A DNA stretch of 64,000 bases from Minisyncoccota bacterium. Its GTDB lineage: Bacteria > Patescibacteriota > Minisyncoccia > Phycocordibacterales > PALSA-1337. Positions 3,531 to 53,878 of this stretch are shown here, in pieces. The notes under the pieces are model-generated. The model saw only the letters and a list, made by a program, of their open reading frames with translations, was not told the DNA's origin and ran no database searches. Position numbers and translations under genes: made by a program. The DNA lies in NCBI GenBank assembly GCA_036170235.1, contig JAVHOW010000016.1:5511-69510 (forward strand), in the 5' to 3' direction. Positions within the stretch are counted from its first letter, which is position 1. Every line of letters starts with the position of its first letter.

Positions 3531-4073
3531 TCAAAAACTCATCTCGTACCAGTTTAGTTTATATATATCTTGAATCAATATTCTTTCACCCGTTGCCCAT
3601 GTCCTGTTCTTTTCCAGTCCAAGAAGCCCAATAGCTTTTCTAACACTCATTTCGCTTGAACCTTCAATTTCAAGAAACGCCGGCATCCCGGGGTATTGAT
3701 CTATGTCAAACGTCCAATCCTTTAATGAGAATGTTGTACGAATTTTTTCTTGATGTGCATACTTCTCGAGCCCAATTTCTTGGAATAAATCTGATAACTG
3801 TTCTGGTGTAGCAATGTTAAAGTTGATTTCTTTATGTTTTCTAACACCACCTGTAATGTTTGATTTCGCTTTCCATGTGACCTCATGCTTTCCTTCAGAA
3901 TTTGATCTTATCCGTAGAAACCAAAGATCCTCGCCTTCCTTCGTACCAATTGGTCTATACCAATCAACTATTAAGGTAGTTTTCTGTATCTTTTTTGCCT
4001 TCAATAAAATAAGTGACTTAATAATTTTTTTCTCATCAATATCCAGCACTTTTGTTTCGATTTCGAATGCCAT
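3531..4073 (-). CDS. CYTH domain protein (class IV adenylate cyclase / triphosphatase-like).
   Basis: N-terminal EIETK (ExExK) motif and the size are typical of CYTH/CyaB. Confidence 0.65.
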   Translation of the reverse strand: MAFEIETKVLDIDEKKIIKSLILLKAKKIQKTTLIVDWYRPIGTKEGEDLWFLRIRSNSEGKHEVTWKAKSNITGGVRKHKEINFNIATPEQLSDLFQEIGLEKYAHQEKIRTTFSLKDWTFDIDQYPGMPAFLEIEGSSEMSVRKAIGLLGLEKNRTWATGERILIQDIYKLNWYEMSF

Positions 4074-4095
4074 AAAAGTTTAGTTGATTAAAGAA

Positions 4096-4494
4096 TTATT
4101 TTCTTGCTGTCAATTCAATCTCTTCTTTTAGGAGGTCGAATTTTACTATGAATTTATCGAAGAAACCTTTTTGTCCTGCTAGTCCATAAGGTACAATATT
4201 TCCTCCAACTGAAGGCATAAATCCACCCTTAATATCGTATGATATATTACCGACTTTCAACGTAACTGGATGGACATAATACAAAGAAACTTTTCCTCCT
4301 ACACCAAACGCTTCTTTAATTTCACTGTTACTTCTATTTATACCAATATCTTCCCCAATTTCTGAGTCAAAAAAGCAGTGATCAGCACCGGAATCAACCA
4401 ATACTTCATAATCGGTAAACTTACCTTTATTTATTAGTTGCACTGATATAACAGGACGCAAAGCGTCCCCATATGCTTTATACTTGAACTTCAT
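4096..4494 (-). CDS. Retropepsin-like (clan AA) aspartic protease.
   Basis: VLVDSGADHCFFD contains the D-S/T-G-A active-site signature at ~130 aa. The start overlaps the upstream gene stop by ATGA. Confidence 0.7.
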   Translation of the reverse strand: MKFKYKAYGDALRPVISVQLINKGKFTDYEVLVDSGADHCFFDSEIGEDIGINRSNSEIKEAFGVGGKVSLYYVHPVTLKVGNISYDIKGGFMPSVGGNIVPYGLAGQKGFFDKFIVKFDLLKEEIELTARK

Positions 4495-4694
4495 AATAAG
4501 GCACCGCCAATAAAAGCTGATAAATTTGAAGGCATACGTGTAAAAATAGGGTGAGGATGACCATTCTTCAAGGCGCGGGCACGTGCTTCTTTCAATGTTT
4601 TACCGTATCCTACCACAGTTATTTCGTCTTTGAGTAAAGCTACCCAAAGTCCTTTATATTTTTTGTAGATTTGAGTCCAGTTGATTGCTGACAT
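4491..4694 (-). CDS. Small protein (DUF5678-like) cotranscribed with the aspartic protease.
   Basis: A 67-aa ORF with a 4-nt overlap with the protease gene. The KGLWVAL...VVGYGKTLKEARARA pattern is present. Confidence 0.5.
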   Translation of the reverse strand: MSAINWTQIYKKYKGLWVALLKDEITVVGYGKTLKEARARALKNGHPHPIFTRMPSNLSAFIGGALL

Positions 4695-4718
4695 ATCATA
4701 ATTTTAGCAACAAAAAGT

Positions 4719-4740
4719 ACTTCGTCAATATTGACGAAGT
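4719..4740. promoter_or_regulatory. Perfect 22-bp palindrome ACTTCGTCAATATTGACGAAGT upstream of the minus-strand three-gene operon. Candidate operator/promoter.
   Basis: Seen directly in the sequence, 25 nt upstream of the first gene start at 4694 on the minus strand. It contains TTGACG. Confidence 0.4.
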
Positions 4741-4935
4741 TATTCTCCAGTACTCTAATAAAGTTTTTGGTGCCCGGGGTGCCTAGTAGGTCAATCTGCT
4801 GATTGAGGAATCTTTCCTTACAGGAACTGTACAGGCTTCACATTTTTTCGAATTCGACAAGCTCATTCTCAAAAATATGTTCAGCCTTTTCGATTCCCAC
4901 ACGTGAGTCGCGCAGGCGACTCACTCCCGAGCCAC

Positions 4936-4966
4936 AAAAAAATCCGCAAAGAAGCGGATTTTTTTC
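4936..4966. terminator. Hairpin plus T-run terminator downstream of tRNA-Leu (minus strand).
   Basis: aaaaaaatccgcaaagaagcggattttttt. Confidence 0.55.
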
Positions 4967-4968
4967 TG

Positions 4969-5052
4969 TGCCCGGGGTGGGAATCGAACCCACACAGCCT
5001 TTCGGCTACAAAATTTTAAGTCTTGCGTGTATACCAATTTCACCACCCGGGC
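4969..5052 (-). tRNA. tRNA-Leu (anticodon UAA), type II with long variable arm.
   Basis: Cloverleaf folded by eye. Acceptor GCCCGGG/CCCGGGC, anticodon loop CUUAAAA, long variable arm GCCGAAAGGCU, T-loop GGTTCGATTCC. CCA is not encoded. Confidence 0.8.
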
Positions 5053-5154
5053 GGGTTAGTTATAAGTTTACAATTATCAGTCATTAATTACTATTCAAAG
5101 CGCACGGTGTTTTGACTTTTGACTAATAACTAATAATTGCAAACTAATAACTTG

Positions 5155-5227
5155 AGGCCACGGCGAGAATCGAACTCGCGTATAGCTCTTTTGCAGAGAG
5201 CCGAATTACCACTTTTCTACGTGGCCA
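5155..5227 (-). tRNA. tRNA-Cys (anticodon GCA).
   Basis: Acceptor GGCCACG/CGTGGCC, anticodon stem-loop GCTCT-CTGCAAA-AGAGC, T-arm GCGAGTTCGATTCTCGC. Confidence 0.8.
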
Positions 5228-5276
5228 CCTCACTATACTAGCACGTTACTTTACAGACTTTAAGGACTTTATGACT

Positions 5277-5603
5277 TTACAGACTCTTCTCGATTTCGTC
5301 TATCTTTTGCCTGTTTTTCTCACCGATATCGATTGCGACTTCAAAGAATGGAATGCGTCCAATACGAGATTTTTCCATGACATACTGACGAAAATCGGTA
5401 AGCTGACGATGGGCGAATTCGAGTGCGGATGCTTCAGCGTTTTCAGGTAGAACTGTCATCAGAATGCGCGCCTTGCCACCTCTACTGAATATTTCAACAC
5501 CTGTAATCGTGATCAATGATTGCCTGTTTGACTCGCGTGAAAAATACTCGGCAGCGAGCTCGCGAATCATTTCTTTTAGTTTGTCGTCTTTTTGAGCGGT
5601 CAT
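5277..5603 (-). CDS. rbfA: Ribosome-binding factor A.
   Basis: 108 aa, adjacent to infB as in the canonical nusA-infB-rbfA context. RbfA-like sequence. Confidence 0.8.
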   Translation of the reverse strand: MTAQKDDKLKEMIRELAAEYFSRESNRQSLITITGVEIFSRGGKARILMTVLPENAEASALEFAHRQLTDFRQYVMEKSRIGRIPFFEVAIDIGEKNRQKIDEIEKSL

Positions 5604-5616
5604 AAAATATATAATA

Positions 5617-7170
5617 TTAAACCTTCTCCACCGTCCTTATCGCTTCTATTCTATCTCCTGGCGCGACTTCAACTTTGGCATCTAATAACATACCAAACTC
5701 GAATCCTTCACGGACTTCATCCGTAGTTTTCTTTGCCTGCTGGAGTCCGCGTATTTTACCACGACCAATCTCGGCCTCACGACGCATGATACGTACTTCA
5801 TTTCCAGTAAAAATAGAGCCAGTTTCAACTTTGCCACCAACTACTTGCTTATCTTTTTCTTTTGAGAATAAAGCCATGATTTTGGCGCGGCCGGTCATTT
5901 CCTCGACATATTCTTTTGGAACTTTTGCCATGAGCGCGTCTTTGACATATTGCGTGAGTTCGTAAATTATACTGAAGTTTTTGACCGAAAGAGGAATCGC
6001 CGAACGTTCAATCATACTTTCAGCGCCTTTTTCCGGTGCGGCGTTGAAACCAATCAGAAGAATAGTTGGATCGCCGAGCGCTGTCTTCACATCATTTTCA
6101 TTTATGTCACCAATTCCTTCAGAGACAATTTTTAACTGGACTTTGTCATGTGTAACTTTTGCCAATTCATGCTTGACGCCATCGAGACTACCTATGACGT
6201 CGGCTTTAATAATGATTGGGACAATAACAATTGCCGGCTCTTCTTTTCCTGTCTTAGTTTTTTCGGTGATAGTAGAAACAGTTCTCATTTCATGTTCGTA
6301 TGCTTCTACCATTTTCTCCGCCCCTTTTTTGCTTGTTGTAGTCACAAAATCAATTCCACATGCCGGCATAGTATTCCAACCGAGAATTTTGATCGGCATT
6401 GCGGCAGTAGCAATCTCCACTTTTTCTCCTTTGAAATTTTCAATGAAACGAACTGGCGTGAATGCGTTGCCGGCAACCACAAATTCTCCTAGTTTTAGCG
6501 AACCATTTTTCAGAAGTAATGTCGCGGAAATACCTTTGCGCGTATCAAGTGTTGACTCAATGACACTGCCGGTTGCATTCAAACCTAAGTCAGCTTTTAG
6601 GTCAGCCAATTCTGTTACAAGCAGGAGCATGTCGAGTAGTTCAGGAACACCTTTGCCAGTCACTGCCGAAACTTCAACGCAAGGAACATCGCCACCCCAA
6701 CCTTCGACGTATATTTCATTTTCACCGAGACTTTGTTTGGCGCGTTCAATGTTCGCGTTCGGTTTGTCGATCTTGGTGATAGCAACGATGTAAGGGATTT
6801 TGGAATTTTTAATAATTTTGTAAGCTTCAACGGTCTGTGGTTTTACTCCATCTTCGGCAGATACGGCAAGAATTGCGACATCAGCAACCTGCGCGCCACG
6901 TTCGCGGATACCGCAGAAGGCTTCGTGACCAGGCGTGTCCAAGAAAGTCAGCATAGTTTTTTTGCCTTCAGGTGAAGTGTGTTCAACTTGGTACGCTCCC
7001 ATGTGCTGGGTTATACCGCCAGCCTCGCCAGCAACAATGTTGGTTTTGCGGATATAGTCGAGCAAAGTCGATTTGCCATGGTCAATATGCCCCATGACTA
7101 CAATCACAGGAGGACGCTCTGTATGCGAGGCCGTGACGATCAGGTTTTTATGATGTTTGGTAGGCATGGT
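5617..7170 (-). CDS. infB: Translation initiation factor IF-2, short form lacking the long N-terminal region.
   Basis: G domain GHIDHGKST, DTPGHEAF, NKID. Likely start is MPTKHH. The track ORF extends to 7242. Confidence 0.9.
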   Translation of the reverse strand, partial: TMPTKHHKNLIVTASHTERPPVIVVMGHIDHGKSTLLDYIRKTNIVAGEAGGITQHMGAYQVEHTSPEGKKTMLTFLDTPGHEAFCGIRERGAQVADVAILAVSAEDGVKPQTVEAYKIIKNSKIPYIVAITKIDKPNANIERAKQSLGENEIYVEGWGGDVPCVEVSAVTGKGVPELLDMLLLVTELADLKADLGLNATGSVIESTLDTRKGISATLLLKNGSLKLGEFVVAGNAFTPVRFIENFKGEKVEIATAAMPIKILGWNTMPACGIDFVTTTSKKGAEKMVEAYEHEMRTVSTITEKTKTGKEEPAIVIVPIIIKADVIGSLDGVKHELAKVTHDKVQLKIVSEGIGDINENDVKTALGDPTILLIGFNAAPEKGAESMIERSAIPLSVKNFSIIYELTQYVKDALMAKVPKEYVEEMTGRAKIMALFSKEKDKQVVGGKVETGSIFTGNEVRIMRREAEIGRGKIRGLQQAKKTTDEVREGFEFGMLLDAKVEVAPGDRIEAIRTVEKV

Positions 7171-11696: not shown

Positions 11697-12215
11697 AATA
11701 CAGAAAATAAAAACAATATTGTGATTTATGAATCAGAGGATGGTAAAGTAGAGTTACAAGCGGATATAAAGAAAGATACGATTTGGGCGACTCAATTACA
11801 GATTGCTCAATTGTTTGAGACTACTTTACAAAACATTAATGCACACCTTATTAAAATATATAACGATGGTGAATTAGATAAAAATCCAACTATCAAGAAA
11901 TCCTTGATAGTTCGAAAAGAAGGTGGTAGAGCCGTGAAAAGGGAAATTGAGCTGTACAATCTCGATGCTATTATCGCCGTAGGCTACCGCGTCAATTCCA
12001 AAAAAGCCACCCAATTTCGCATCTGGGCGACCAGTGTCTTACATAAGTATTTAGTCGAAGGTTTTAGCTTAAATAAAAATCGTCTAGAAAAGTCACCAGA
12101 AAAACTGGTCGGTCTTTATAAAACCATCGCATTTCTTGAGTCAAAAAGTCTTAATGGAAAGCTCAAAGGAAAAATTACTCTTAAATTAACTGAAGAAATG
12201 GAACCAAATGAATAG
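11697..12215 (+). CDS. RhuM family protein.
   Basis: YNLDAIIAVGYRVNSKKATQFRIWAT signature. Likely start is MNTENK. Confidence 0.7.
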   Translation, partial: NTENKNNIVIYESEDGKVELQADIKKDTIWATQLQIAQLFETTLQNINAHLIKIYNDGELDKNPTIKKSLIVRKEGGRAVKREIELYNLDAIIAVGYRVNSKKATQFRIWATSVLHKYLVEGFSLNKNRLEKSPEKLVGLYKTIAFLESKSLNGKLKGKITLKLTEEMEPNE

Positions 12216-12355
12216 TGATATGGCAAATTAAGTTGTAAAGAATTTCTTTACAACTCCTACAGAAAATCCCCAACTAACAAGTAATCCTTGCAAGTTCAAC
12301 TAGTAAAGATTCCTTACTAGTTCAAAATCAGTCCAAATCGCGCTATACTACCATT

Positions 12356-22581: not shown

Positions 22582-23214
22582 ATGATAATCAATTACCTTG
22601 GCGGACAATTCGTGAAAGTTCAATTTGGCGACACTATCCTCGCTTTCAACCCTATTTCCAAGGATTCCAAGCTCAAAGTTTCAAAGTTCGGCGCGGACGT
22701 TGTTTTGACCAGTGTCAATCATCCCGACATGAACGGTTTTGATCAAGTTATGTTTGGCGACAAGAAACCATTCGCCATTTCCGGTCCAGGTGAATATGAA
22801 GTCAAAGGCGTGTTCATCAAAGGCTTTGGATCCGAATCTGGCTATGATGGCGAAAAGAGAATCAATACTATATATACGGTTGCGCTTGAAGGCATGAACA
22901 TTTGTTTTCTTGGTGCGTTGAATACAACCGAATTGCCCAAGGAAGCTGATGAGGCCATAGATGAAGTGGACATTCTTTTTGTGCCAATCAGTGGCGATGG
23001 TGTGCTCGATCCAGCCAAAGCGTACAAGTTGGCAGTTTCTATTGGTCCCAAAATAATTATTCCGGTGAACTATGGTGATGGGGGTGATAAAGACGCTTTG
23101 AAAAAATTCCTGAAGGAAGCAGGGGAGAATCCAAAGCCAGAACCGAAACTTACGCTCAAGAAGAAGGATTTGGAAGGTAAGGAGGCGTATGTTGTGGTGT
23201 TGGAGAGGGAGTAA
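22582..23214 (+). CDS. MBL-fold metal-dependent hydrolase (COG2220-like).
   Basis: ~210 aa with beta-lactamase-fold-like motifs. Weak assignment. Confidence 0.45.
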   Translation: MIINYLGGQFVKVQFGDTILAFNPISKDSKLKVSKFGADVVLTSVNHPDMNGFDQVMFGDKKPFAISGPGEYEVKGVFIKGFGSESGYDGEKRINTIYTVALEGMNICFLGALNTTELPKEADEAIDEVDILFVPISGDGVLDPAKAYKLAVSIGPKIIIPVNYGDGGDKDALKKFLKEAGENPKPEPKLTLKKKDLEGKEAYVVVLERE

Positions 23215-23262
23215 AATTGTACCTTGCGCTTCGATATAGCAGTGCTAGAATTATTACATAAT

Positions 23263-23562
23263 ATGAAACTCCAAACACATCTCGAAAACCTACGCGCAAA
23301 ACCAGAACATATCCGCAAAAGGATAGCTTTTTGGTCATCATTCGGAATTACTGCAATTATCTTTGCATTTTGGCTGGGTTCATTTTCTATTACTGGAAGT
23401 ACGGCAAGTGGTGCCGTGGCTTCTGCGGTCTCAAAAGCTGGTAGTCCTGGAAGCTCGCTGATTGCAGGCGTCGGAAACTTTTTTGTTGATATAAAGGAGA
23501 TGCTTTTTGGTGCGAAGAAGATCAAATATAGTGAGGTTGTGGTGACGCCGGGGAGTAAATAG
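23263..23562 (+). CDS. Hypothetical small membrane protein.
   Basis: One TM helix. The stop is immediately followed by a REP palindrome. Confidence 0.35.
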   Translation: MKLQTHLENLRAKPEHIRKRIAFWSSFGITAIIFAFWLGSFSITGSTASGAVASAVSKAGSPGSSLIAGVGNFFVDIKEMLFGAKKIKYSEVVVTPGSK

Positions 23563-24121
23563 TCCAAGGTCCGACCTTGGATAGGATGTTATTTTGTGGT
23601 CTCTTTTCACCCAAGTAATCTTTGAAACTTGAGAACTCATAGACCTTCGAATATTCGACTGCTCTATCATAGTGCTCATATCTTACTTCTCTCAACATAT
23701 CTGGTTCTTCAATACCAAAAGGGTTTAAATGTATATATTCAATAATACGAGCTAAATATTGATCGGTATCAATAGTTTTTGCTTTATATTTTCCTTGAAA
23801 TATTGTGCCCGAGTGATTATATTTTTTATTGAAATACATTACATACGCGGTACAGAGTTTTCTAACAAATTGTTCAACTTGCTGATCAGTTTCGACCATA
23901 AGTCCCAAATGAAAATGATTTGGCATAAGACAATACGAGAATATATCCACGAGATTTTGTTGTCGGTCTATAGAAAAAATATCAGATTTATTCAATTTGA
24001 AAACTAGAGGCTTTGAATCATTCGCTATATACAACAAACAGACAAAGCGTTGATAATCGCTCTTATCATTGAATATAGGCGCTTTATGAGCACCGCGATT
24101 GTAGATATGGTAGTAAGGCAT
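23522..24121 (-). mobile_element. IS200/IS605-like Y1 (HUH) transposase of the REP-associated tyrosine transposase (RAYT) type, flanked by two REP-like palindromes.
   Basis: YHIYNRGAHKAPIF and LMPNHFHLGL give the HUH motif as HFH plus a catalytic Tyr region. REP copies lie at 23563 and 24126 in inverted arrangement around it. The likely start MPYY is just inside the upstream REP. The track ORF extends to 24178 with GTG. Confidence 0.7.
23563..23581. repeat. REP-like 19-bp perfect palindrome TCCAAGGTCCGACCTTGGA, copy 1, at the 3' side of the RAYT gene.
   Basis: Exact palindrome seen in the sequence. Confidence 0.9.
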
Positions 24122-24125
24122 TTGT

Positions 24126-24144
24126 TCCAAGGTCAGACCTTGGA
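24126..24144. repeat. REP-like palindrome TCCAAGGTCAGACCTTGGA, copy 2, at the 5' side of the RAYT gene.
   Basis: Exact palindrome with a variable centre base. Confidence 0.9.
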
Positions 24145-24153
24145 CAACATATT

Positions 24154-24208
24154 CTATCAAACCGGAATGAAGAAACACTGAAGAAACGATAAAGAAGTAA
24201 TGAAGAAA
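24154..24208. repeat. ~45-bp repeat tatcaaaccRgaatgaagaaacactgaagaaacgataaRgaagtaatgaaga, copy A.
   Basis: Near-identical to 28475..28525 and 44725..44765. It lies at the 5' end of the minus-strand RAYT unit. Confidence 0.7.
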
Positions 24209-24268
24209 TTAAAAAACCGCGGGCGACTGGGTGTCGCGACGCGGATGAAAACGGCCTTCCATGTAATC

Positions 24269-24496
24269 TTAGTTGTAATCGTCGAGCAACTTATCAATTC
24301 TGTGATAGAGATGCCAGCCAGCATTCCTCCATATGTGTATTGTCCAAAGAAGGACTATTGGAAACAAAAGCGCGCTTGCGACCATGATTAAGTGTGGAAA
24401 ATTTTTCGGAGTTGGAAGTATTCCAATCCAAATGACAATGCTCAAGATACTTCCAATTGATGCGAGACTCCAGTAGAAAATCAAAAGAATGAGCAT
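24269..24496 (-). CDS. Small membrane protein, PLDc_N-like.
   Basis: Two TM helices, 75 aa. Confidence 0.35.
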   Translation of the reverse strand: MLILLIFYWSLASIGSILSIVIWIGILPTPKNFPHLIMVASALLFPIVLLWTIHIWRNAGWHLYHRIDKLLDDYN

Positions 24497-24699
24497 TAAG
24501 GCATTCTTATGGAATCGTGCGGTGATAGAATCGGTTCTGTTGTCAATGGTTTTTGTTGATCTTAATTAGACGTGCCGGTAGTTTCATAGTTGACCTTTAA
24601 TTTTTTCTTATTTCTACTATGTATATTCTCATCTAATACACACAATGTCAAGCTGACACCACACCTTATTTTTGCTACAATTAAGTGGTAAAATAATTT

Positions 24700-24718
24700 T
24701 CCAAGGTCGGACCTTGGA
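24700..24718. repeat. REP-like palindrome TCCAAGGTCGGACCTTGGA, copy 3, 8 nt upstream of the gyrA start codon.
   Basis: Exact palindrome overlapping the expected RBS region of gyrA. Confidence 0.9.
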
Positions 24719-24725
24719 GTGATTC

Positions 24726-27200
24726 ATGGCAAAGAAAACCAACCAAATTGAAGCCGAACCAGTAGCACGACCAGCGGGAGCTGGCGTTGTGGCACGCAAT
24801 ATCACCACCGAGATGCGTGAGTCTTTTCTAGACTACGCAATGTCAGTTATTACTGACCGCGCGCTTCCGGATGTTCGTGATGGCTTGAAGCCTGTGCACC
24901 GCCGCATTCTCTATGCTATGCACGAAAAAGGTCTGACATTTTCCTCAAAATTTCGTAAGTCCGCAGTGCCAGTCGCTGACGCGATGGGTAATTATCACCC
25001 GCATGGTGACGTAGCTATTTATGATTCGCTTGTCAAAATGGCGCAAGATTTCACTATGCGATATCCGCTGGTTCAGGGTCAAGGAAACTTTGGAACCATT
25101 GATGGAGATCCAGCCGCCGCTATGCGTTATACCGAAGCCAAGATGTCACGCGTTGCCGCTGAACTTCTCCGTGATATCGACAAGAACACCGTTGATTTTC
25201 GTCCAAACTACGATGGCACTCGCAAAGAGCCGACCGTTCTTCCAACTGCGGTTCCGAATCTTCTTTTGAATGGCACGCTCGGTATTGCCGTTGGTATGGC
25301 GACCAACATCGCTCCGCACAATCTCCGGGAAGTCGTTGATGCGACCATGCATTTGGTTGATAACAAGGATGCGACCATTGACGATATTTTCCAATTTATC
25401 AAAGGTCCAGATTTTCCAACGGGCGCGGTTTTGTATGGTGAAAAAGATATTCATCATGCATACGCAACTGGTCGTGGTGGTATGACTGTGCGTGGTGAAG
25501 CGGAGATTGTTGAAGACAAAAAAGGCCAGTATCAGATCGTCATTAGTTCCATCCCATATCGTGTCAACAAATCAGAGCTCATCATTCGCATGGCAGATCT
25601 CGTTCGTGAAAAAATCGTTGAAGGAGTCCGTGGTTTGCGCGATGAATCAGACAAAGAAATGCGCATTGTTCTTGATTTAAAAAATGGCGCGTATCCAGAA
25701 AAGATTCTCAATTTACTCTACAAACATACCCAGCTCGAAGAAACATTTCACATGAATACAGTGGCGCTCGTTCACGGTGTGCCACAGACGTTGTCGCTCA
25801 AGTCTATTTTGGAAGAATTCGTTGAGCACCGTATTGAAGTCATTCGCCGTCGAACAGCTTTTGATCTCGCCAAAGCCGAGGATCGTGAGCATATTCTGCT
25901 TGGTTTAAAGAAAGCACTAGATCATATTGATGAAATCATTACTTTGATTCGCGCGTCAGCTGATGTTACCGCGGCTCATGCAGGATTGATGAAGAAGTTC
26001 AAGTTCAGTGACAAGCAAACAACGGCTATTTTGGAAATGCGTTTGCAAAAACTCGCTGGCCTAGAGCGCAAGAAAGTTTTGGATGAATTGAAAGAAGTTC
26101 AAGCCTTGATCGAAGAATTAAAAGGCATTCTCGGTAGTGAAAAGAAAGTTCGTGGCATCATCAAAACCGAACTTACTGAAATCAAAAATAAATATGGCGA
26201 CGATCGTCGCACCAAGATTGTGAAACATGGCGTCAAGGAATTCAATCCAGAAGATTTGATTGCTGATGAAGAATCAGTATTGGTTTTGACCAAAGGCGGT
26301 TACATCAAGCGAACCAATCCTGATGAATATCGCAAACAGAAGCGTGGTGGCGTTGGTGTAGTTGATCTAGATACCAAAGAAGAGGATTTTATTTCACATC
26401 TTGTTTTTGCTTCAACACACAATGATTTGCTATTTTTTTCTGACAAAGGCAAAGCGTATCAAATCAAGATGTATGATATTCCCGAAGGCAAGCGTGCTAC
26501 TAAAGGTAAATCCATGATGAATTTCTTGTCTCTGGCAGAAGGCGAGCGCGTAACTTCTATTTTACCAATGCCGAAAAATAAGAAAGAAGCAGAAGATTTG
26601 TCATTGATGATGGTAACCAAAGATGGTACCGGTAAAAAATGTTCGGCAGCTCATTTCAAGGATGTGCGTCGCTCTGGTTTGATCGCAATCACACTCGATG
26701 CTGGTGATGAACTCATTTCTGCTTCGTTTGTTTCAAAAAATGATACGGTGACGATTGCCACCAAAGAAGGTCAGTCAATCCGTTTTGATCAAGATGATGT
26801 TCGCGAAATGGGTCGCAATGCCGCAGGTGTTCGTGTTATCAAACTTGATAAAGGTGATGCCGTCATTTCCGCTGATATTGTTTCCAAAGATGCCAAAAAT
26901 CCAGCTTTGTTCGTCATGGGTGCCAATGGTTATGGAAAAAAGACCGATCTTTCTGAATACAAAGTTCAAAACCGCGGTGGTTCCGGAATTCTGACTATGA
27001 ATATTACGGCGAAAACTGGTCCCTTGATGGCGGCTAAAGTCGTGACTGACGACGAAGAAGAGATTGTGGCTATGTCAAAGAAGTCGCAAGTTATCCGCGT
27101 TGACCTCAAAGAAATTCCGATGCTGAGTCGTGCTACGCAAGGTGTCAGAGTGATGAAGTTACGAGATGGTGATCAGTTGGCGAGTTTGATTTGTTTGTAA
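24726..27200 (+). CDS. gyrA: DNA gyrase subunit A.
   Basis: Active-site region [10 protein letters not shown], a GyrA-box-like QKRGGVGV, and 824 aa with a C-terminal beta-pinwheel. Confidence 0.88.
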
Positions 27201-29312: not shown

Positions 29313-29331
29313 TCCAAGGTCCGACCTTGGA
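29313..29331. repeat. REP-like palindrome TCCAAGGTCCGACCTTGGA, copy 4, upstream of the 29360 gene.
   Basis: Exact palindrome 28 nt upstream of the ATG. TTGACA lies 9 nt further upstream. Confidence 0.9.
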
Positions 29332-29359: not shown

Positions 29360-30595
29360 ATGAAAAAATATATTATTGCATCAAGTATAGCTCTGTTCGC
29401 TCTCGCTTCAGTAGTTGGGGCGCAGAATTTTACATTTTTAAATAATTTGTCAGTTGGGGCTAGTAGCTCTGATGTGGTCAACCTACAAACTTGGCTTATT
29501 TCAAATGGGTATGATATTCCCGCATTGAGTTCGGGGGTGGCTTTTCATGGATATTTTGGTTCGCAAACAAAAACTGCATTAATGAAATATCAATTTTCTA
29601 ACGGAATTCCAAATACCGGCTATTTTGGTCCAATGACTAGGGGGAGGATGAATGGTGGAGATTCCCGTGGGGCAAGTCCACTCAATGTCATTTCACCAAA
29701 TGGTGGGGAAGTTTGGCAGAAAGGAACAACACAAACTATAAGATGGAATGCACCGTATTATTTCAGAGCGACGTATGCAGATATTAAACTCGTTCCGTAT
29801 TATCAGCCATGTACTGGTCAGGTATGTCCGATGGGTGCTGTGCAATCGTCAGGTGCTCAAACATCGATGATGTATCCATATCGTGCGCCGTATACAATTT
29901 CTACAAATATAAGTATCAATCAGAATTCGTATAGTTGGAAAGTTGGGAATGTATTGACTGATGGAAATCTTGATACACCGGTTGGTCAAATAGTTGCTCC
30001 AGACGGCCAATACACCATCCAAGTCTGCGAAACAGGTACCAATAATTGTGACTCAAGTAATTCACCTTTCACTATTACTTCTTCAGCCCCACTTTCAGTT
30101 TTGAAAGTAACTTCCCCAAATGGTGGGGAAGTTTGGCAGGCGAATTCAACACATCGAATCGCTTGGTCTGTAACAGATCTATCTAATGTCGATGCGCCAT
30201 TTGATATCTATCTCGATCAGGCAAATATTTACTGCATTACAACACCATGTGGGAGTACTTATGTTCTTGATAGAAACATCATGACCTCAACTATCTATAA
30301 TTGGATAGTGGCAACTGACATCAATAATGTCCAGATTCCTGCGGCAGATTATAGGGTTCGTGTTTGTATAGCCGGTTCAACGACAAACTGTGATTCGAGT
30401 GACTCATCCTTCACTATTAGCTCAACACTTCTCCGAATTTGCCCAAGTCAAAAAATAGTAAATCAGATGCCCGTTGTTACTGGTCAAGATTATCCTGCGT
30501 ACTATATATTGAACGGTCAACGTCGCGAATTGACAGAATTTGATCAAACTTGGGTACAATCAAATTGTACAGTGCCACAGCAGATAGTTTATTAG
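29360..30595 (+). CDS. Secreted protein with an N-terminal peptidoglycan-binding domain and two ~130-aa internal repeats beginning SPNGGEVWQ.
   Basis: Signal peptide. PG_binding_1-like LQTWLISNGY...YFGSQTKTALMKYQFSNGI. Repeat units at ~aa 112 and ~aa 254. Confidence 0.6.
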   Translation: MKKYIIASSIALFALASVVGAQNFTFLNNLSVGASSSDVVNLQTWLISNGYDIPALSSGVAFHGYFGSQTKTALMKYQFSNGIPNTGYFGPMTRGRMNGGDSRGASPLNVISPNGGEVWQKGTTQTIRWNAPYYFRATYADIKLVPYYQPCTGQVCPMGAVQSSGAQTSMMYPYRAPYTISTNISINQNSYSWKVGNVLTDGNLDTPVGQIVAPDGQYTIQVCETGTNNCDSSNSPFTITSSAPLSVLKVTSPNGGEVWQANSTHRIAWSVTDLSNVDAPFDIYLDQANIYCITTPCGSTYVLDRNIMTSTIYNWIVATDINNVQIPAADYRVRVCIAGSTTNCDSSDSSFTISSTLLRICPSQKIVNQMPVVTGQDYPAYYILNGQRRELTEFDQTWVQSNCTVPQQIVY

Positions 30596-34006: not shown

Positions 34007-34015
34007 ATTTAAATG

Positions 34016-34034
34016 TCCAAGGTCTGACCTTGGA
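34016..34034. repeat. REP-like palindrome TCCAAGGTCTGACCTTGGA, copy 5, in the rplD-rplW spacer.
   Basis: Exact palindrome between L4 and L23 inside the operon. Confidence 0.9.
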
Positions 34035-34048
34035 CAAACTAAACCACC

Positions 34049-34510
34049 ATGTCATTATTTGGATCAAAAAAGAAAACAGAAGCGGTAATTAAAACTCCGA
34101 AAGAGGCGAAGGCGGTAAAAGCTGTGTCAACAAAATCTGCAAAACCAGCAAAAGCTCCAAAGATTGAAAAGGCAAAACCTGTTTCAAAAGCTGTTACTGT
34201 TGTCGGTGATAAATTAAATACATCAGATGGAACTTTCAACACTGCATCTGTTATTCTTCGTCCTCGTATTACAGAGAAGTCAGGTATTTTGAGTCAAGGT
34301 GGTGTATACACATTCGAAGTAACCAAGGGTGCAAATAAAAATTCAGTTGCGTCTGCTGTGAAAGCGCTCTACAAAGTTATTCCAGTCAAAGTTGCAATCC
34401 TTAACAATCCTGCCAGAAACGTTTTTATCCGTGGTCGCCGAGGAGTTGTGCCAGGTGTTCGCAAGGCATTAGTTACGCTAAAGAAAGGAGATAAGATCGA
34501 CTTTGTTTAA
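34049..34510 (+). CDS. rplW: 50S ribosomal protein L23 with a ~60-aa Lys/Ala-rich histone-H1-like N-terminal extension.
   Basis: C-terminal L23 core ILRPRITEKS.... N-terminal KKKTEAVIKTPKEAKAVKAVSTKSAKPAKAPKIEKAKP. Confidence 0.85.
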   Translation: MSLFGSKKKTEAVIKTPKEAKAVKAVSTKSAKPAKAPKIEKAKPVSKAVTVVGDKLNTSDGTFNTASVILRPRITEKSGILSQGGVYTFEVTKGANKNSVASAVKALYKVIPVKVAILNNPARNVFIRGRRGVVPGVRKALVTLKKGDKIDFV

Positions 34511-51643: not shown

Positions 51644-51719
51644 GCCGACATAGCTCAGTTGGTAGAGCGCCACTTTTGTAAAGTGGATGTCCGGGGTTCG
51701 ATCCCTCGTGTCGGCTCCA
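51644..51719 (+). tRNA. tRNA-Thr (anticodon UGU) with encoded CCA.
   Basis: GCCGACATAGCTCAGTTGGTAGAGC, anticodon stem CCACT/AGTGG with loop TTTGTAA, T-arm CGGGGTTCGATCCCTCG, acceptor 3' TGTCGGC-T-CCA. Confidence 0.85.
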
Positions 51720-51791
51720 GAATTAGTTCTAATATATTTGGATCGTATTCATAAGGTGAAATATTCCCGTTTTTTTGCTACAGTAGTATGC

Positions 51792-52511
51792 ATGAATCCC
51801 AAAGAGCTGAGTATCCAAAAAGGTCACTTACACCCAATGACGCAAATGATTCGCGAGATTCAAACGATCTTCGAGGAGATTGGTTTTGAGGTGGCACAAG
51901 GACCGGAGTTGGAGACGGAATTCTACAATTTTGACGCGCTTAATATTCCTGCGAATCATCCAGCTAGAGCGATGCAAGATACGTTTTGGGTGAATACATT
52001 AAAAGGGTCAAAAGATCGTCTTGTTTTGCGTACGCACACGTCACCAGTGCAGATCCGCTATATGCAGACACATAAGCCACCATTCAAAATTATTGTACCA
52101 GGCAAGGTCTATCGCAATGAGGCGACGGATGCCACGCATGAGGCGCAATTTTATCAGGTTGAGGGACTTTATGTTGCCGAAAAAGTTTCAATGGCGGAAC
52201 TCAAGGGCACCATGGAATACTTTTTCAAAAAATTATTTGGTGATGATGTCCAGCTTCGTTTTCGTCCAAGCTTCTTTCCATTCGTTGAACCTGGTGCGGA
52301 AGCGGACATATTCTTCAAAGGGAAGTGGTTGGAGGTAATGGGTGCTGGTCCAGTCCATGAAAACGTCTTGCGCACAGCTGGCATTGATCCAGAAAAATAT
52401 TCGGGGTTTGCGTTTGGCGGAGGTATTGATAGATTGTTGATGATTAAATATGGTTTGGATGATATTCGTCAGGTGTATTCGGGGGATTTGAGGTTTGTTA
52501 ATCAGTTTTAA
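51792..52511 (+). CDS. pheS: Phenylalanine--tRNA ligase alpha subunit, core-only short form.
   Basis: Class II motifs. Start is MNPKEL. The track ORF start at 51687 overlaps the tRNA and is rejected. Confidence 0.88.
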   Translation: MNPKELSIQKGHLHPMTQMIREIQTIFEEIGFEVAQGPELETEFYNFDALNIPANHPARAMQDTFWVNTLKGSKDRLVLRTHTSPVQIRYMQTHKPPFKIIVPGKVYRNEATDATHEAQFYQVEGLYVAEKVSMAELKGTMEYFFKKLFGDDVQLRFRPSFFPFVEPGAEADIFFKGKWLEVMGAGPVHENVLRTAGIDPEKYSGFAFGGGIDRLLMIKYGLDDIRQVYSGDLRFVNQF

Positions 52512-52513
52512 TA

Positions 52514-53878
52514 ATGAAAATTTCCTACACACAACTGCAAACATACCTTGAAGACAAACTTCCAACACCAGAAAAGTTGGCTGACGCTTTCACTTTTCAT
52601 GCATTCGAAATCGAGAGTATGGAGAAGGAGGGTGACGATACCATTTTAGACATAAAAGTTTTGCCAGATCGCGCTTGTTACGCAAAATCTTATGAAGGTA
52701 TTGCGCGAGAAGTGTCGGCGATTCTTGGTTTGAAAAAGAAAGCAGAAAAAGTGAAAATTCCCGATTCGAAGCACACGATTACTGTTTCAATTTCTCAAAT
52801 AAATGAAGTGCTTGGTTCGGATATTTCACAAAAAGAAGCGGTTTCGATTTTGACTAGAATGGACATTAAAGTTACAGAAAAAGGGGATATTCTCGAGCTC
52901 TCAGTACCCTGCGATAGGCTTGATTTGCAGTCATGGCGCGATATTCCCGAGGAAGTTGGACGTATTTATGGTTATGACAAAATTAAGTCGATTTTGCCAA
53001 AAAATACTACATTTAAGCCTATTGTTGAGAAAGCATTTTATTACACTGAAAAGATCAAGAATATTCTAGTTTCTGCGGGTTTTTCCGAAGTTTACACCTA
53101 CAGTTTAGTTGCAAAAGGCGTGTATGAAATCGAGAAACCTTTGGCGGCTGATAAGAATCATTTGCGAACAAATCTGACTGATGGAATAGTGAAGTCGCTT
53201 GAGTTCAACGCACGAAATGCTGATTTGCTTGGCTTGGATGAGATTAAAATCTTTGAGATTGGTAAAGTGTTTACAAAAGATGGCGAGCACACTTCGTTGT
53301 GTGTTGGGATAAAAAATATCAAGAAAGCAAAAGGTGCTGAGTTGGCAAAAGAAAAAATTAAAAAAGTTCGCGACGAGGTGCTTAAAGTTCTTGAAGTAAA
53401 TGCGACTATTCTCTGCACGGTTGATGATTCTGGCGGAATTATTTCTTTGAATGTGGAAGCGGTTGGTATGACCAATAATTCAGACGGGATTTTCGAAATT
53501 AATCTTGATAAAGTGGTGGCGACGTTATCGGAGCCTAATTCGTATGCGGATCTCAATTTTAGTAAGGCTACAACGATAGAATACAAGAAGTTTTCTGTAT
53601 ATCCGTTCATTGTGCGCGATATAGCTGTTTTTGTCCAAGGTCCGACCTTGGACACTGAAGTTTGGTCTGTAATAGAAAAAGTTCTGAATGAGGTTGGTGC
53701 CGCGAATTTATTGGCTCATCATTCATTGTTCGATACATTCAAAAAAGATGGCAAAGTTTCGTACGCTTATAGGATGATATTCCAATCTATGGAAAAAACT
53801 CTAACAGATGACGAGGTTAATTCTATTATGGAAAAAATTTATGCTGAAATAAAAGGTAAGGGTTGGGAGGTGAGGTAA
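52514..53878 (+). CDS. pheT: Phenylalanine--tRNA ligase beta subunit, short form (454 aa).
   Basis: B1 N-terminus MKISYTQLQTYL. B3/4, B5 and the FDX-ACB C-terminus (FPFIVRDIAVFV). It contains a REP palindrome in-frame. Confidence 0.85.
   Translation: MKISYTQLQTYLEDKLPTPEKLADAFTFHAFEIESMEKEGDDTILDIKVLPDRACYAKSYEGIAREVSAILGLKKKAEKVKIPDSKHTITVSISQINEVLGSDISQKEAVSILTRMDIKVTEKGDILELSVPCDRLDLQSWRDIPEEVGRIYGYDKIKSILPKNTTFKPIVEKAFYYTEKIKNILVSAGFSEVYTYSLVAKGVYEIEKPLAADKNHLRTNLTDGIVKSLEFNARNADLLGLDEIKIFEIGKVFTKDGEHTSLCVGIKNIKKAKGAELAKEKIKKVRDEVLKVLEVNATILCTVDDSGGIISLNVEAVGMTNNSDGIFEINLDKVVATLSEPNSYADLNFSKATTIEYKKFSVYPFIVRDIAVFVQGPTLDTEVWSVIEKVLNEVGAANLLAHHSLFDTFKKDGKVSYAYRMIFQSMEKTLTDDEVNSIMEKIYAEIKGKGWEVR
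53634..53652. repeat. REP-like palindrome TCCAAGGTCCGACCTTGGA, copy 6, inside the pheT coding sequence (encodes VQGPTLD).
   Basis: Exact 19-mer within the ORF. The ORF length is unchanged relative to the expected PheT spacing. Confidence 0.9.

Follow-up and report, generated by a model that had tools for sequence, protein, structure and literature searches.

A short perfect palindrome in Patescibacteria, probably the REP of a REP-RAYT system, with a copy in frame inside pheT

Introduction

Repetitive extragenic palindromes (REPs) and their REP-associated tyrosine transposases (RAYTs) form systems that have been described mainly in Proteobacteria and that are treated as strictly extragenic. 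Here we report on a 19-nt palindrome that is probably a REP of this kind in a 64,000-nt stretch of a Minisyncoccota bacterium genome (GenBank assembly GCA_036170235.1, contig JAVHOW010000016.1, positions 5,511 to 69,510), which we call the window. One copy lies in frame inside the essential gene pheT, and two copies flank a gene for a Y1 (HUH) tyrosine transposase. The best described parallels are the REP-RAYT systems of Enterobacteria and Pseudomonas (Nunvar 2010, PMC2817692; Bertels and Rainey 2011, PMC3116915; Messing 2012, PMC3479197; Bertels 2017, PMC5581495). Their hallmarks are one RAYT for each REP family, a conserved locus, and the presence of REP doublets, or REPINs (PMC5581495). The GTAG- and CGTC-tagged REP superfamilies have a conserved tetranucleotide at one end of the stem (PMC3733652).

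Palindromes inside essential genes are known from Rickettsia. The Rickettsia palindromic elements (RPEs) are about 100–150 bp in length, sit in frame and add a peptide module to their host protein, and they have no known dedicated transposase (PMC10969869). Our full-text literature searches found no description of the 19-mer or of a REP-RAYT system in Patescibacteria (the Candidate Phyla Radiation, CPR), and the Patescibacteria phyla go unmentioned in a broad survey of Y1 HUH enzymes. The starting point for this work was an original prediction, made from the letters of the window, which called the palindrome a REP and pointed to copies in pheT, upstream of gyrA and between rplD and rplW.

The repeat in the window

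The 19-mer TCCAAGGTCNGACCTTGGA occurs six times in the window, and all six copies are exact. A search that allowed up to three mismatches found no degenerate copies (1–3 mismatches) in the window. Dinucleotide-preserving shuffles give an expectation of 0.04 copies, so we reject a chance origin. The 19-mer is a perfect 9-1-9 palindrome, TCCAAGGTC-N-GACCTTGGA, with a fuller consensus of approximately (G/T)T(T/G)-TCCAAGGTC-S-GACCTTGGA-(A/C)A(C/A). As single-stranded DNA the copies are predicted to fold into hairpins with a stem of 8–10 bp and a 3-nt loop (-7 to -10 kcal/mol, z -4 to -6).

Copy 1 (23563..23581, centre C) comes directly after the stop of a conserved 99-aa gene (..23562) and lies in the 3' end of the transposase ORF, and copy 2 (24126..24144, centre A) is 4 nt upstream of the transposase ATG. 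Copy 3 (24700..24718, centre G) is in the gyrA leader. Copy 4 (29313..29331, centre C) is between a divergent response-regulator gene and a gene for a peptidoglycan-binding protein, 28 nt before the ATG at 29360. Copy 5 (34016..34034, centre T) is in the 42-nt spacer between rplD and rplW, 9 nt past the rplD stop (34006) and 14 nt ahead of the rplW ATG (34049). Copy 6 (53634..53652, centre C) is the one in pheT. Perfect symmetry reaches 23 nt at copy 5 (34014..34036) and copy 6 (53632..53654). The original prediction placed the gyrA, rplD/rplW and pheT copies correctly, and the copies at 23563, 24126 and 29313 were missing from its list.

We looked at two other identities for the repeat. An Rfam scan of the window returned four tRNAs only, so the palindrome is not a known RNA family. 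We also ruled out a substitute transcription terminator, as ordinary bidirectional terminators with T-runs are present elsewhere in the window and the palindrome has no T-run at most of its sites.

The Y1 transposase gene

The gene that the palindrome flanks on both sides (24126 and 23563) runs from 23522 to 24121 on the reverse strand and encodes a 199-aa RAYT-like Y1 (HUH) tyrosine transposase (Pfam Y1_Tnp, 2.4e-10). The HUH motif NHFHL and the tyrosine motif YIHLNP (Tyr-x-x-x-N-P) are both invariant among 27 aligned family members. The last ~19 codons run through copy 1. At the other end we take the ATG at 24121 as the start; the longer listed ORF continues across the palindrome, as does database entry P0121 (218 aa), which means that automatic annotation over-extends the RAYT ORF (218 aa vs 199 aa). 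The original prediction had not noticed this gene, and it is the gene with its two flanking copies that supports calling the palindrome a REP.

The AlphaFold (AF2) model of the transposase has a pLDDT of 89. Among PDB structures Foldseek ranks 4ER8 first, in which the E. coli RAYT holds a REP hairpin (E 5e-6), and this structure also gives the longest alignment (182 columns). ISDra2 (E 3e-5) and IS608 TnpA come next. There are 4016 Y1 homologues at E<=1e-5, and all named source organisms among the 120 listed are Patescibacteria. Several of the homologues are labelled "REP element-mobilizing transposase RayT" by the Joint Genome Institute (JGI).

The gene order gyrA, ORF, Y1, 99-aa gene, Lactamase_B_3 is common to the window (22582..27200) and a Taylorbacteria genome (L085/L086). 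The syntenic Taylorbacteria RAYT (P0177) is 57% identical to the window RAYT, and PheT is 55–59% identical between the two. Synteny of the locus over this range, with these levels of identity, fits vertical descent of the RAYT. The Y1 gene is absent from the syntenic locus in two closer relatives (L123 and L124), which points to loss.

We made two further observations at this locus. In the closest relative, a HicAB toxin-antitoxin pair occupies the RAYT position (L124 5071..5553). In the window, the ~500 nt that separate the RAYT gene from the gyrA promoter (24145..24652) have no ORF of 80 aa or more, and relatives (L085, L123) have a gene of 154–158 aa there; this part of the window may be a decayed gene.

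Distribution across Patescibacteria

We scanned one genome per species for the exact pattern and found 73 loci, of which 68 are from Patescibacteria. The other five, from other phyla, look like chance matches. The window itself is not among the scanned genomes, as a megablast of the window against the 73 loci (L001–L073) gave nothing. Groups that carry the palindrome include Saccharibacteria, Paceibacteria and Kaiser-, Yonath-, Lloyd-, Taga-, Nomura- and Yanofskybacteria. Of the 19 positions of the palindrome 18 are invariant, and the sequence is the same from one CPR class to the next. Among 84 distinct copies, 73 have C or G at the centre. Both flanks favour T at positions -2 and -1, and the symmetry thereby reaches further outwards.

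Y1 homologues that are 33–45% identical to the window protein adjoin the palindrome in six of the scanned loci. In five of these (L019, L049, L064, L065 and L069), as in the window, the gene has a copy on both sides, one upstream of the start and one at or over the stop. The sixth (L016) has the 3' copy only, and its Y1 N-terminal region looks degraded.

Approximately 35 copies are on contigs of a single Saccharibacteria genome (CAYPDT01). There we found six doublets (L001, L027, L034, L039, L065, L070), each with a C-form followed by a G-form 42–44 nt apart. The spacers between the two forms are 23–25 nt and are not conserved in sequence, unlike those of classical REPINs. We tried the centre base as a marker of orientation relative to the flanks. 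This was inconsistent in CAYPDT01, although C then G does alternate within doublets. Several full copies have a degenerate second copy 10–12 nt away (e.g. GAAAGGTCCGACATT, TTAAGGTCCGACCTTGT), as in L032 5490..5545, L046 2538..2590, L006 5150..5200 and L073 3481..3530. In TsaD and RpiB such degenerate doubling results in duplicated RSD(L/I) peptides.

Where the copies sit

We divided coding from non-coding DNA with our own crude greedy ORF script. By this measure 59 of 85 CPR copies are intergenic, and non-coding DNA makes up 12.6% (binomial p ~1e-33). Copies tend to follow stop codons closely, with 20 of 49 at a distance of 0–9 nt, and distances to start codons are broader. About a quarter of the CPR copies lie well inside long ORFs, in frame. 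The statement in the original prediction that REPs are by definition extragenic thus does not hold for the Patescibacteria family.

With Pfam we confirmed as host genes LeuRS and UvrC, each in two genomes, as well as DNA polymerase I (PolA), TsaD, a PIF1-type helicase, a P-type ATPase, a class-V aminotransferase and an M20 peptidase. From reading the translations we would add DHFR, GrpE, RpiB, RNase HII and a second cysteine-desulfurase-like protein. The palindrome reads as the same three peptides on either strand, QG[PR]TL[DE], PRSDLG and SKV[GR]PW, and a stop codon appears in just one case, when the third frame (SKV[GR]PW) has T/A at the centre. Because the frames are stop-free apart from the T/A centre, and the peptides are short and turn-forming, copies in surface loops are tolerated.

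The two LeuRS copies occupy one loop, immediately ahead of the FTTRPDT motif, in registers that differ by one residue, and one of them has a degenerate second copy beside it. They look like independent arrivals on a single permissive loop. As a separate observation, the LeuRS proteins of L020 (1..2499) and L073 (1365..4505) have a NUDIX domain inserted after the editing domain. A RAYT gene can itself be a host: in L019 (6137..6832) the RAYT gene contains an in-frame REP (FQGRTLE) next to a partial duplicate, and the protein is ~12 residues longer than its L049 homologue. Insertions that add length therefore do occur.

The pheT copy

The host gene in the window is a short form of pheT (52514..53878, forward strand, 454 aa) with B5, PheRS-beta core and FDX-ACB domains and an intact ORF. 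Copy 6 (TCCAAGGTCCGACCTTGGA) is exactly where the original prediction put it, and it is read in frame as V374-Q-G-P-T-L-D380 in the FDX-ACB region. The palindrome is identical in an independent read-level assembly (a Logan SRR25490533 contig, L074), so it is not an artefact of one metagenome-assembled genome (MAG). In the AlphaFold model of PheT, which has high local confidence here, V374-Q375 end strand beta-1 of the FDX-ACB domain (366–375), G376-L379 form a turn and D380, as the N-cap, starts helix alpha-1 (380–393). The pheT copy is a true member of the REP family that is tolerated in this beta-alpha turn, a surface loop of the protein.

Most PheT homologues have a loop of the same length, "PESV-SA", at the palindrome site. 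Among them are the closest alleles, P0002 (85% amino acid identity, SELVQA) and P0003 (84%, PETIDDA). P0002 is also 454 aa and aligns without a gap at the site, in agreement with the claim that there was no change in length. When we compared nucleotides between the window and its sister alleles, the differences were essentially confined to the seven palindrome codons, with flanks at ordinary, mostly synonymous divergence. We also considered that the REP had once been present in the sisters and decayed there. We rejected this, as P0002 shares only ~4 of 21 positions (hand comparison) and its peptide resembles the PESV-type loop. The alignment of PheT orthologues, which the original prediction had proposed as a check, thus bears out the replacement of native sequence. 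Its concern was that relatives without REPs might carry the same nucleotides. The closest ones have the unrelated PESV-type loop, although some distant orthologues do carry a palindrome at the site, in other REP dialects.

The relatives with traces of a palindrome are spread over a range of divergence. P0004 (L078, 78% amino acid identity to the window PheT) keeps the left arm and centre, and its right arm is broken by a 6-nt insertion. P0005 (L077, 75%) has a perfect variant, (TC)GTACAAGGTC-N-GACCTTGTAC(GA), with a symmetric double change, and P0009 (L075, 70%) has the same variant. P0038 (L081, Taylorbacteria, 55%) has TGTCCGAGGT-TCC-ACCcCGGACA. The alleles that bear a palindrome are polyphyletic on a neighbor-joining (NJ) tree of PheT built without the site, and a single origin is therefore unsupported.

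P0005 and P0009 share a 70-nt tract centred on the palindrome in which 68 of 70 positions are identical, in genes that are 70% identical overall (corrected p ~1e-5). In the same tract P0005 matches its own sister, P0006, at only 41 of 70 positions. On the sequences, the simplest reading is that a short horizontal conversion tract carried the palindrome between the P0005 and P0009 lineages. We also note that pheT is free of REPs in the genome of L124 and L079, whose syntenic locus lacks a RAYT, so the RAYT and the pheT copy go together.

Three side observations concern the pheST region. The window PheT is without the B3_4 editing domain, and related lineages (P0009, P0023, P0028, P0038 and others) have PheT of ~655 aa with B3_4; judging from these sequences, PheRS editing may have been lost in the window clade. 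The first part of the longest pheS ORF (51687..52511) is also covered by a tRNA gene (51644..51716). This overlap places the true pheS start further downstream, and PheS in relatives is 226–258 aa vs 274 aa for the ORF. In L079 an NgoPII-type restriction-modification pair lies upstream of pheS (4016..5936 region), and this pair is absent from the window.

The gyrA leader

Copy 3 (TCCAAGGTCGGACCTTGGA) ends 7 nt before the gyrA ATG (24726), and not 8 nt as first described. A promoter-like site, CTGACA-17-TACAAT with an extended -10 TG, lies upstream on the forward strand (24653..24681) and is conserved in relatives, which puts the REP in the gyrA 5' untranslated region (UTR). The gyrA-leader and rplD/rplW copies, the latter also correctly located by the original prediction, are ordinary 5'-UTR or post-stop REP positions.

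The stem covers GGAG (24716..24719), so the copy does occupy the Shine-Dalgarno (SD) position as the original prediction said. We ran the RNA fold that it suggested. The hairpin pairs GGAG 6 nt before the ATG (centroid -11 kcal/mol), but the leader as a whole folds no better than shuffles (z -0.5). With its stem covering the SD, the modelled hairpin may damp translation of gyrA.

The two closest relatives by GyrA (94% identical; L123 and L124) keep a hairpin at the same position in the leader. In L124 it is CTGAGGcCGGACCTCAG, with two compensatory pair changes vs the window, and this dialect has a perfect copy at another place in that genome (L079, 11918). In L123 the hairpin is shorter, AAGGAT-agca-ATCCTT. 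The L123 spacer orthologous to copy 4 matches the REP at ~12 of 19 positions (hand count) and looks, from its sequence, like a decayed copy.

REP dialects

Several versions of the palindrome exist, and RAYT genes are flanked by their own. In the Taylorbacteria genome the syntenic Y1 gene (L085/L086) is flanked by the dialect TGAGGTC-S-GACCTCC as an inverted doublet. That genome has a second Y1 gene (P0171, L083), and inverted doublets of ACCGAGGT-TCC-ACCTCGGT lie at its flanks. Head-to-head doublets are present in L083 and L085, and other dialects flank other RAYT genes as well (L083–L086, L091, L109, L112, L114).

The GTACAAGG variant, which is the one found in pheT of L075 and L077, occurs at 36 loci in a metagenome scan, and by tblastn none of these is pheT. 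Judged from the printed flanks, the loci are apparently mostly outside genes. Seven of them also hold Y1 homologues, and in L112 and L114 the homologue has a copy on each side. We count GTACAAGG as a separate REP dialect.

In two cases the palindrome at an orthologous site matches a dialect in the same genome. One is the L124 gyrA leader described above. The other is the Taylorbacteria pheT (L081), where CCGAGGTTCCACCcCGG differs by one mismatch from the REP at that genome's own RAYT P0171, CCGAGGTTCCACCTCGG.

Interpretation and proposed route

We conclude that Patescibacteria probably have a REP-RAYT system of their own, with the 19-mer as its REP. The observations that lead us there are the many copies of the palindrome, the flanking of Y1 genes, a RAYT locus that is syntenic, a preference for extragenic positions despite many intragenic exceptions, the dialect matches at orthologous sites and the one conversion tract.

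By analogy with the biochemistry of the E. coli RAYT, the Patescibacteria enzyme would recognise the palindrome hairpin in single-stranded DNA, and would cleave and rejoin the DNA beside it. Such action on hairpins could spread and maintain REP copies. The REP would have arrived in pheT once the lineage had separated from its closest known relatives, and would have taken the place of seven codons at zero net length. The likeliest routes into pheT would be a short patch of conversion or recombination, or an insertion that was later trimmed by selection on the length of the loop.

Several points weigh against a REP-RAYT system. The density of copies is modest, at ~1 per 10–20 kb, and there are no doublets (REPINs) in the window. 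We found no GTAG or CGTC tag next to the stem in the flanks of the 84 distinct copies. The best NCBIfam match of the transposase is REP_Tyr_transpos at 42 bits, which is under the 80-bit cutoff. Sequence profiles are too weak to decide between a RAYT and an IS200-type TnpA, with both ISDra2 (E 0.05) and 4ER8 (E 0.27) giving weak matches when a profile is compared with PDB sequences. An 18/19-nt dialect is common to RAYTs that are only 33–45% identical, and the syntenic RAYT at 57% identity uses another, so the sequence of the REP does not simply track RAYT phylogeny. Finally, the known chemistry of Y1 and RAYT enzymes inserts DNA and does not account for length-neutral overwriting of 21 nt.

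There is an extension of the REP-RAYT interpretation that would deal with the last of these points, although we think it is unlikely to be right. REP sites may be actively maintained, with hairpins at orthologous sites (the pheT loop, the gyrA leader) repeatedly rewritten into the current dialect. The rewriting could proceed by RAYT-catalysed exchange of REP for REP or by short-patch conversion, and it would explain the length-neutral replacement in pheT. If true, it would imply a function of the sites at the level of the host, e.g. as a gyrase or chromosome-organisation signal or in translational control of gyrA.

Alternative explanations

We weighed four other explanations. Each of them explains part of the data, but every one fails on at least one of Y1 flanking, distribution of sites, or density.

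The palindrome might serve a dimeric, conserved DNA-binding protein (such as a global regulator, a nucleoid protein or a partition protein) as its binding site and be kept by selection for that binding, with the link to RAYT being secondary. We consider this quite improbable. A sequence with 18 of 19 positions invariant, identical across CPR classes and without copies at 1–3 mismatches in the window is typical of operator or parS-like sites. The distance of 42–44 nt within the Saccharibacteria doublets, with their non-conserved spacers, is about four helical turns, and by our reading of the flanks many of the CAYPDT01 copies are ~16 nt from an extended -10-like TGnTAnAAT. However, copies are mainly just past stops or inside unrelated housekeeping ORFs and not at the promoters of a coherent regulon. 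In the window and at five of the six other loci the Y1 gene has a copy on either side (L016 has the 3' one only), and one genome has several dialects, each beside its own Y1 gene. We did not identify a candidate binding protein.

It is very improbable that the palindrome is instead a signal like a DNA uptake sequence (DUS), which biased uptake and homologous recombination would spread without a change in length. Patescibacteria are naturally competent. Uptake would fit the length-neutral replacement in pheT, the tract of 68/70 around the palindrome in two alleles that are 70% identical overall, and a motif common to a large clade with dialects. But the density of ~1 per 10–20 kb is 10–20 times below that of known DUS and uptake signal sequences (USS), which occur at ~1 per kb, and some intragenic copies add length. 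The motif is also a perfect palindrome, with several dialects in one genome, and an uptake signal does not predict tight flanking of Y1 genes.

We also give very little credence to the copies being the left and right ends (LE and RE) of an autonomous IS200/IS605-type insertion sequence (IS), with solo copies as leftovers. It is true that the Y1 fold matches ISDra2 and IS608 TnpA almost as well as RAYT, and that hairpins flank the gene. Against this, the window has one transposase gene and five solo copies, both ends have the same palindrome and not a distinct LE and RE, and the gene is at a syntenic chromosomal locus in a genome with 55–59% PheT identity. In addition, excision of IS200/IS605 elements is seamless and leaves no solo hairpins.

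Hardly credible is the last alternative, in which local selection without any part for mobile DNA shaped the palindromes of pheT and gyrA, and the two converged on one sequence (an mRNA hairpin for translation control at gyrA, which would be compatible with a REP, and a protein- or mRNA-level feature at pheT). In its favour are a leader hairpin that is kept in three relatives, with two compensatory pair changes (window vs L124), and a stem that sequesters GGAG. Against it, the same 19-mer is at four other unrelated places in the window and at 68 Patescibacteria loci, the pheT and gyrA-leader variants equal REP dialects found elsewhere, twice in the same genome, and the whole gyrA leader folds no better than shuffles.

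Other features of the window

The window has a second set of palindromes, which are perfect over 25 nt (11888..11912, 12231..12255, 12298..12322 and 30109..30133). Three of them cluster around a spacer at 12.2 kb. Their ends read AACT...AGTT, except for one that reads AGTT...AACT. Separately, the rplW ORF (34049..34510) has a Lys/Ala-rich N-terminal extension of ~67 aa before the L23 domain.

Significance

If the 19-mer is a REP, then REP-RAYT systems are widespread in the reduced, gene-dense genomes of CPR, and their REPs are routinely in frame in essential genes (aminoacyl-tRNA synthetases, PolA, TsaD, UvrC). The loci described here form a natural collection of orthologous sites, some "filled" and others "empty", with changes of dialect and a visible conversion tract. 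These sites can be used for questions in the REPIN field, such as how REPs move, how their perfection is kept up and whether they render a service to the host. There is also a practical consequence. The 7-codon peptides (QGxTLE/D, PRSDLG) are recurrent and non-homologous, and they can mislead protein alignments and gene trees of CPR.

Comparison with known systems

The Patescibacteria repeat resembles DUS and USS (Neisseria, Pasteurellaceae) in being a short motif that is invariant across a clade, has dialects and occupies tolerant positions in genes, and DUS and USS can spread by homologous replacement. It differs in a density that is at least 10-fold lower, in being palindromic and linked to a transposase, and in having several dialects per genome.

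With the IS200/IS605 family (IS608, ISDra2) it shares the Y1 HUH fold, and that family recognises subterminal hairpins in single-stranded DNA. In IS200/IS605 it is the whole element that moves; its left end differs from its right end, and its target is a tetra- or pentanucleotide. In Patescibacteria the hairpin alone is repeated and the gene is seemingly fixed.

Like RPEs, these palindromes are in frame in unrelated essential genes of a reduced genome, in permissive regions of the proteins. Unlike RPEs, the unit is only 19–23 nt (seven codons) and is linked to a RAYT, and it replaces sequence at pheT, with small gains in length elsewhere.

The classical REP-RAYT systems differ from this one in their hosts, which are not Patescibacteria. 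The palindrome here is perfect (9-1-9 to 11-1-11), has no GTAG/CGTC tag and is near-invariant across classes; about a quarter of its copies are in frame in housekeeping genes, and the spacers of its doublets are not conserved. What it has in common with them is a short palindrome in many copies that is mostly extragenic, a flanked Y1 HUH gene at a conserved chromosomal locus, a REP family for each RAYT and, in some genomes, inverted doublets.

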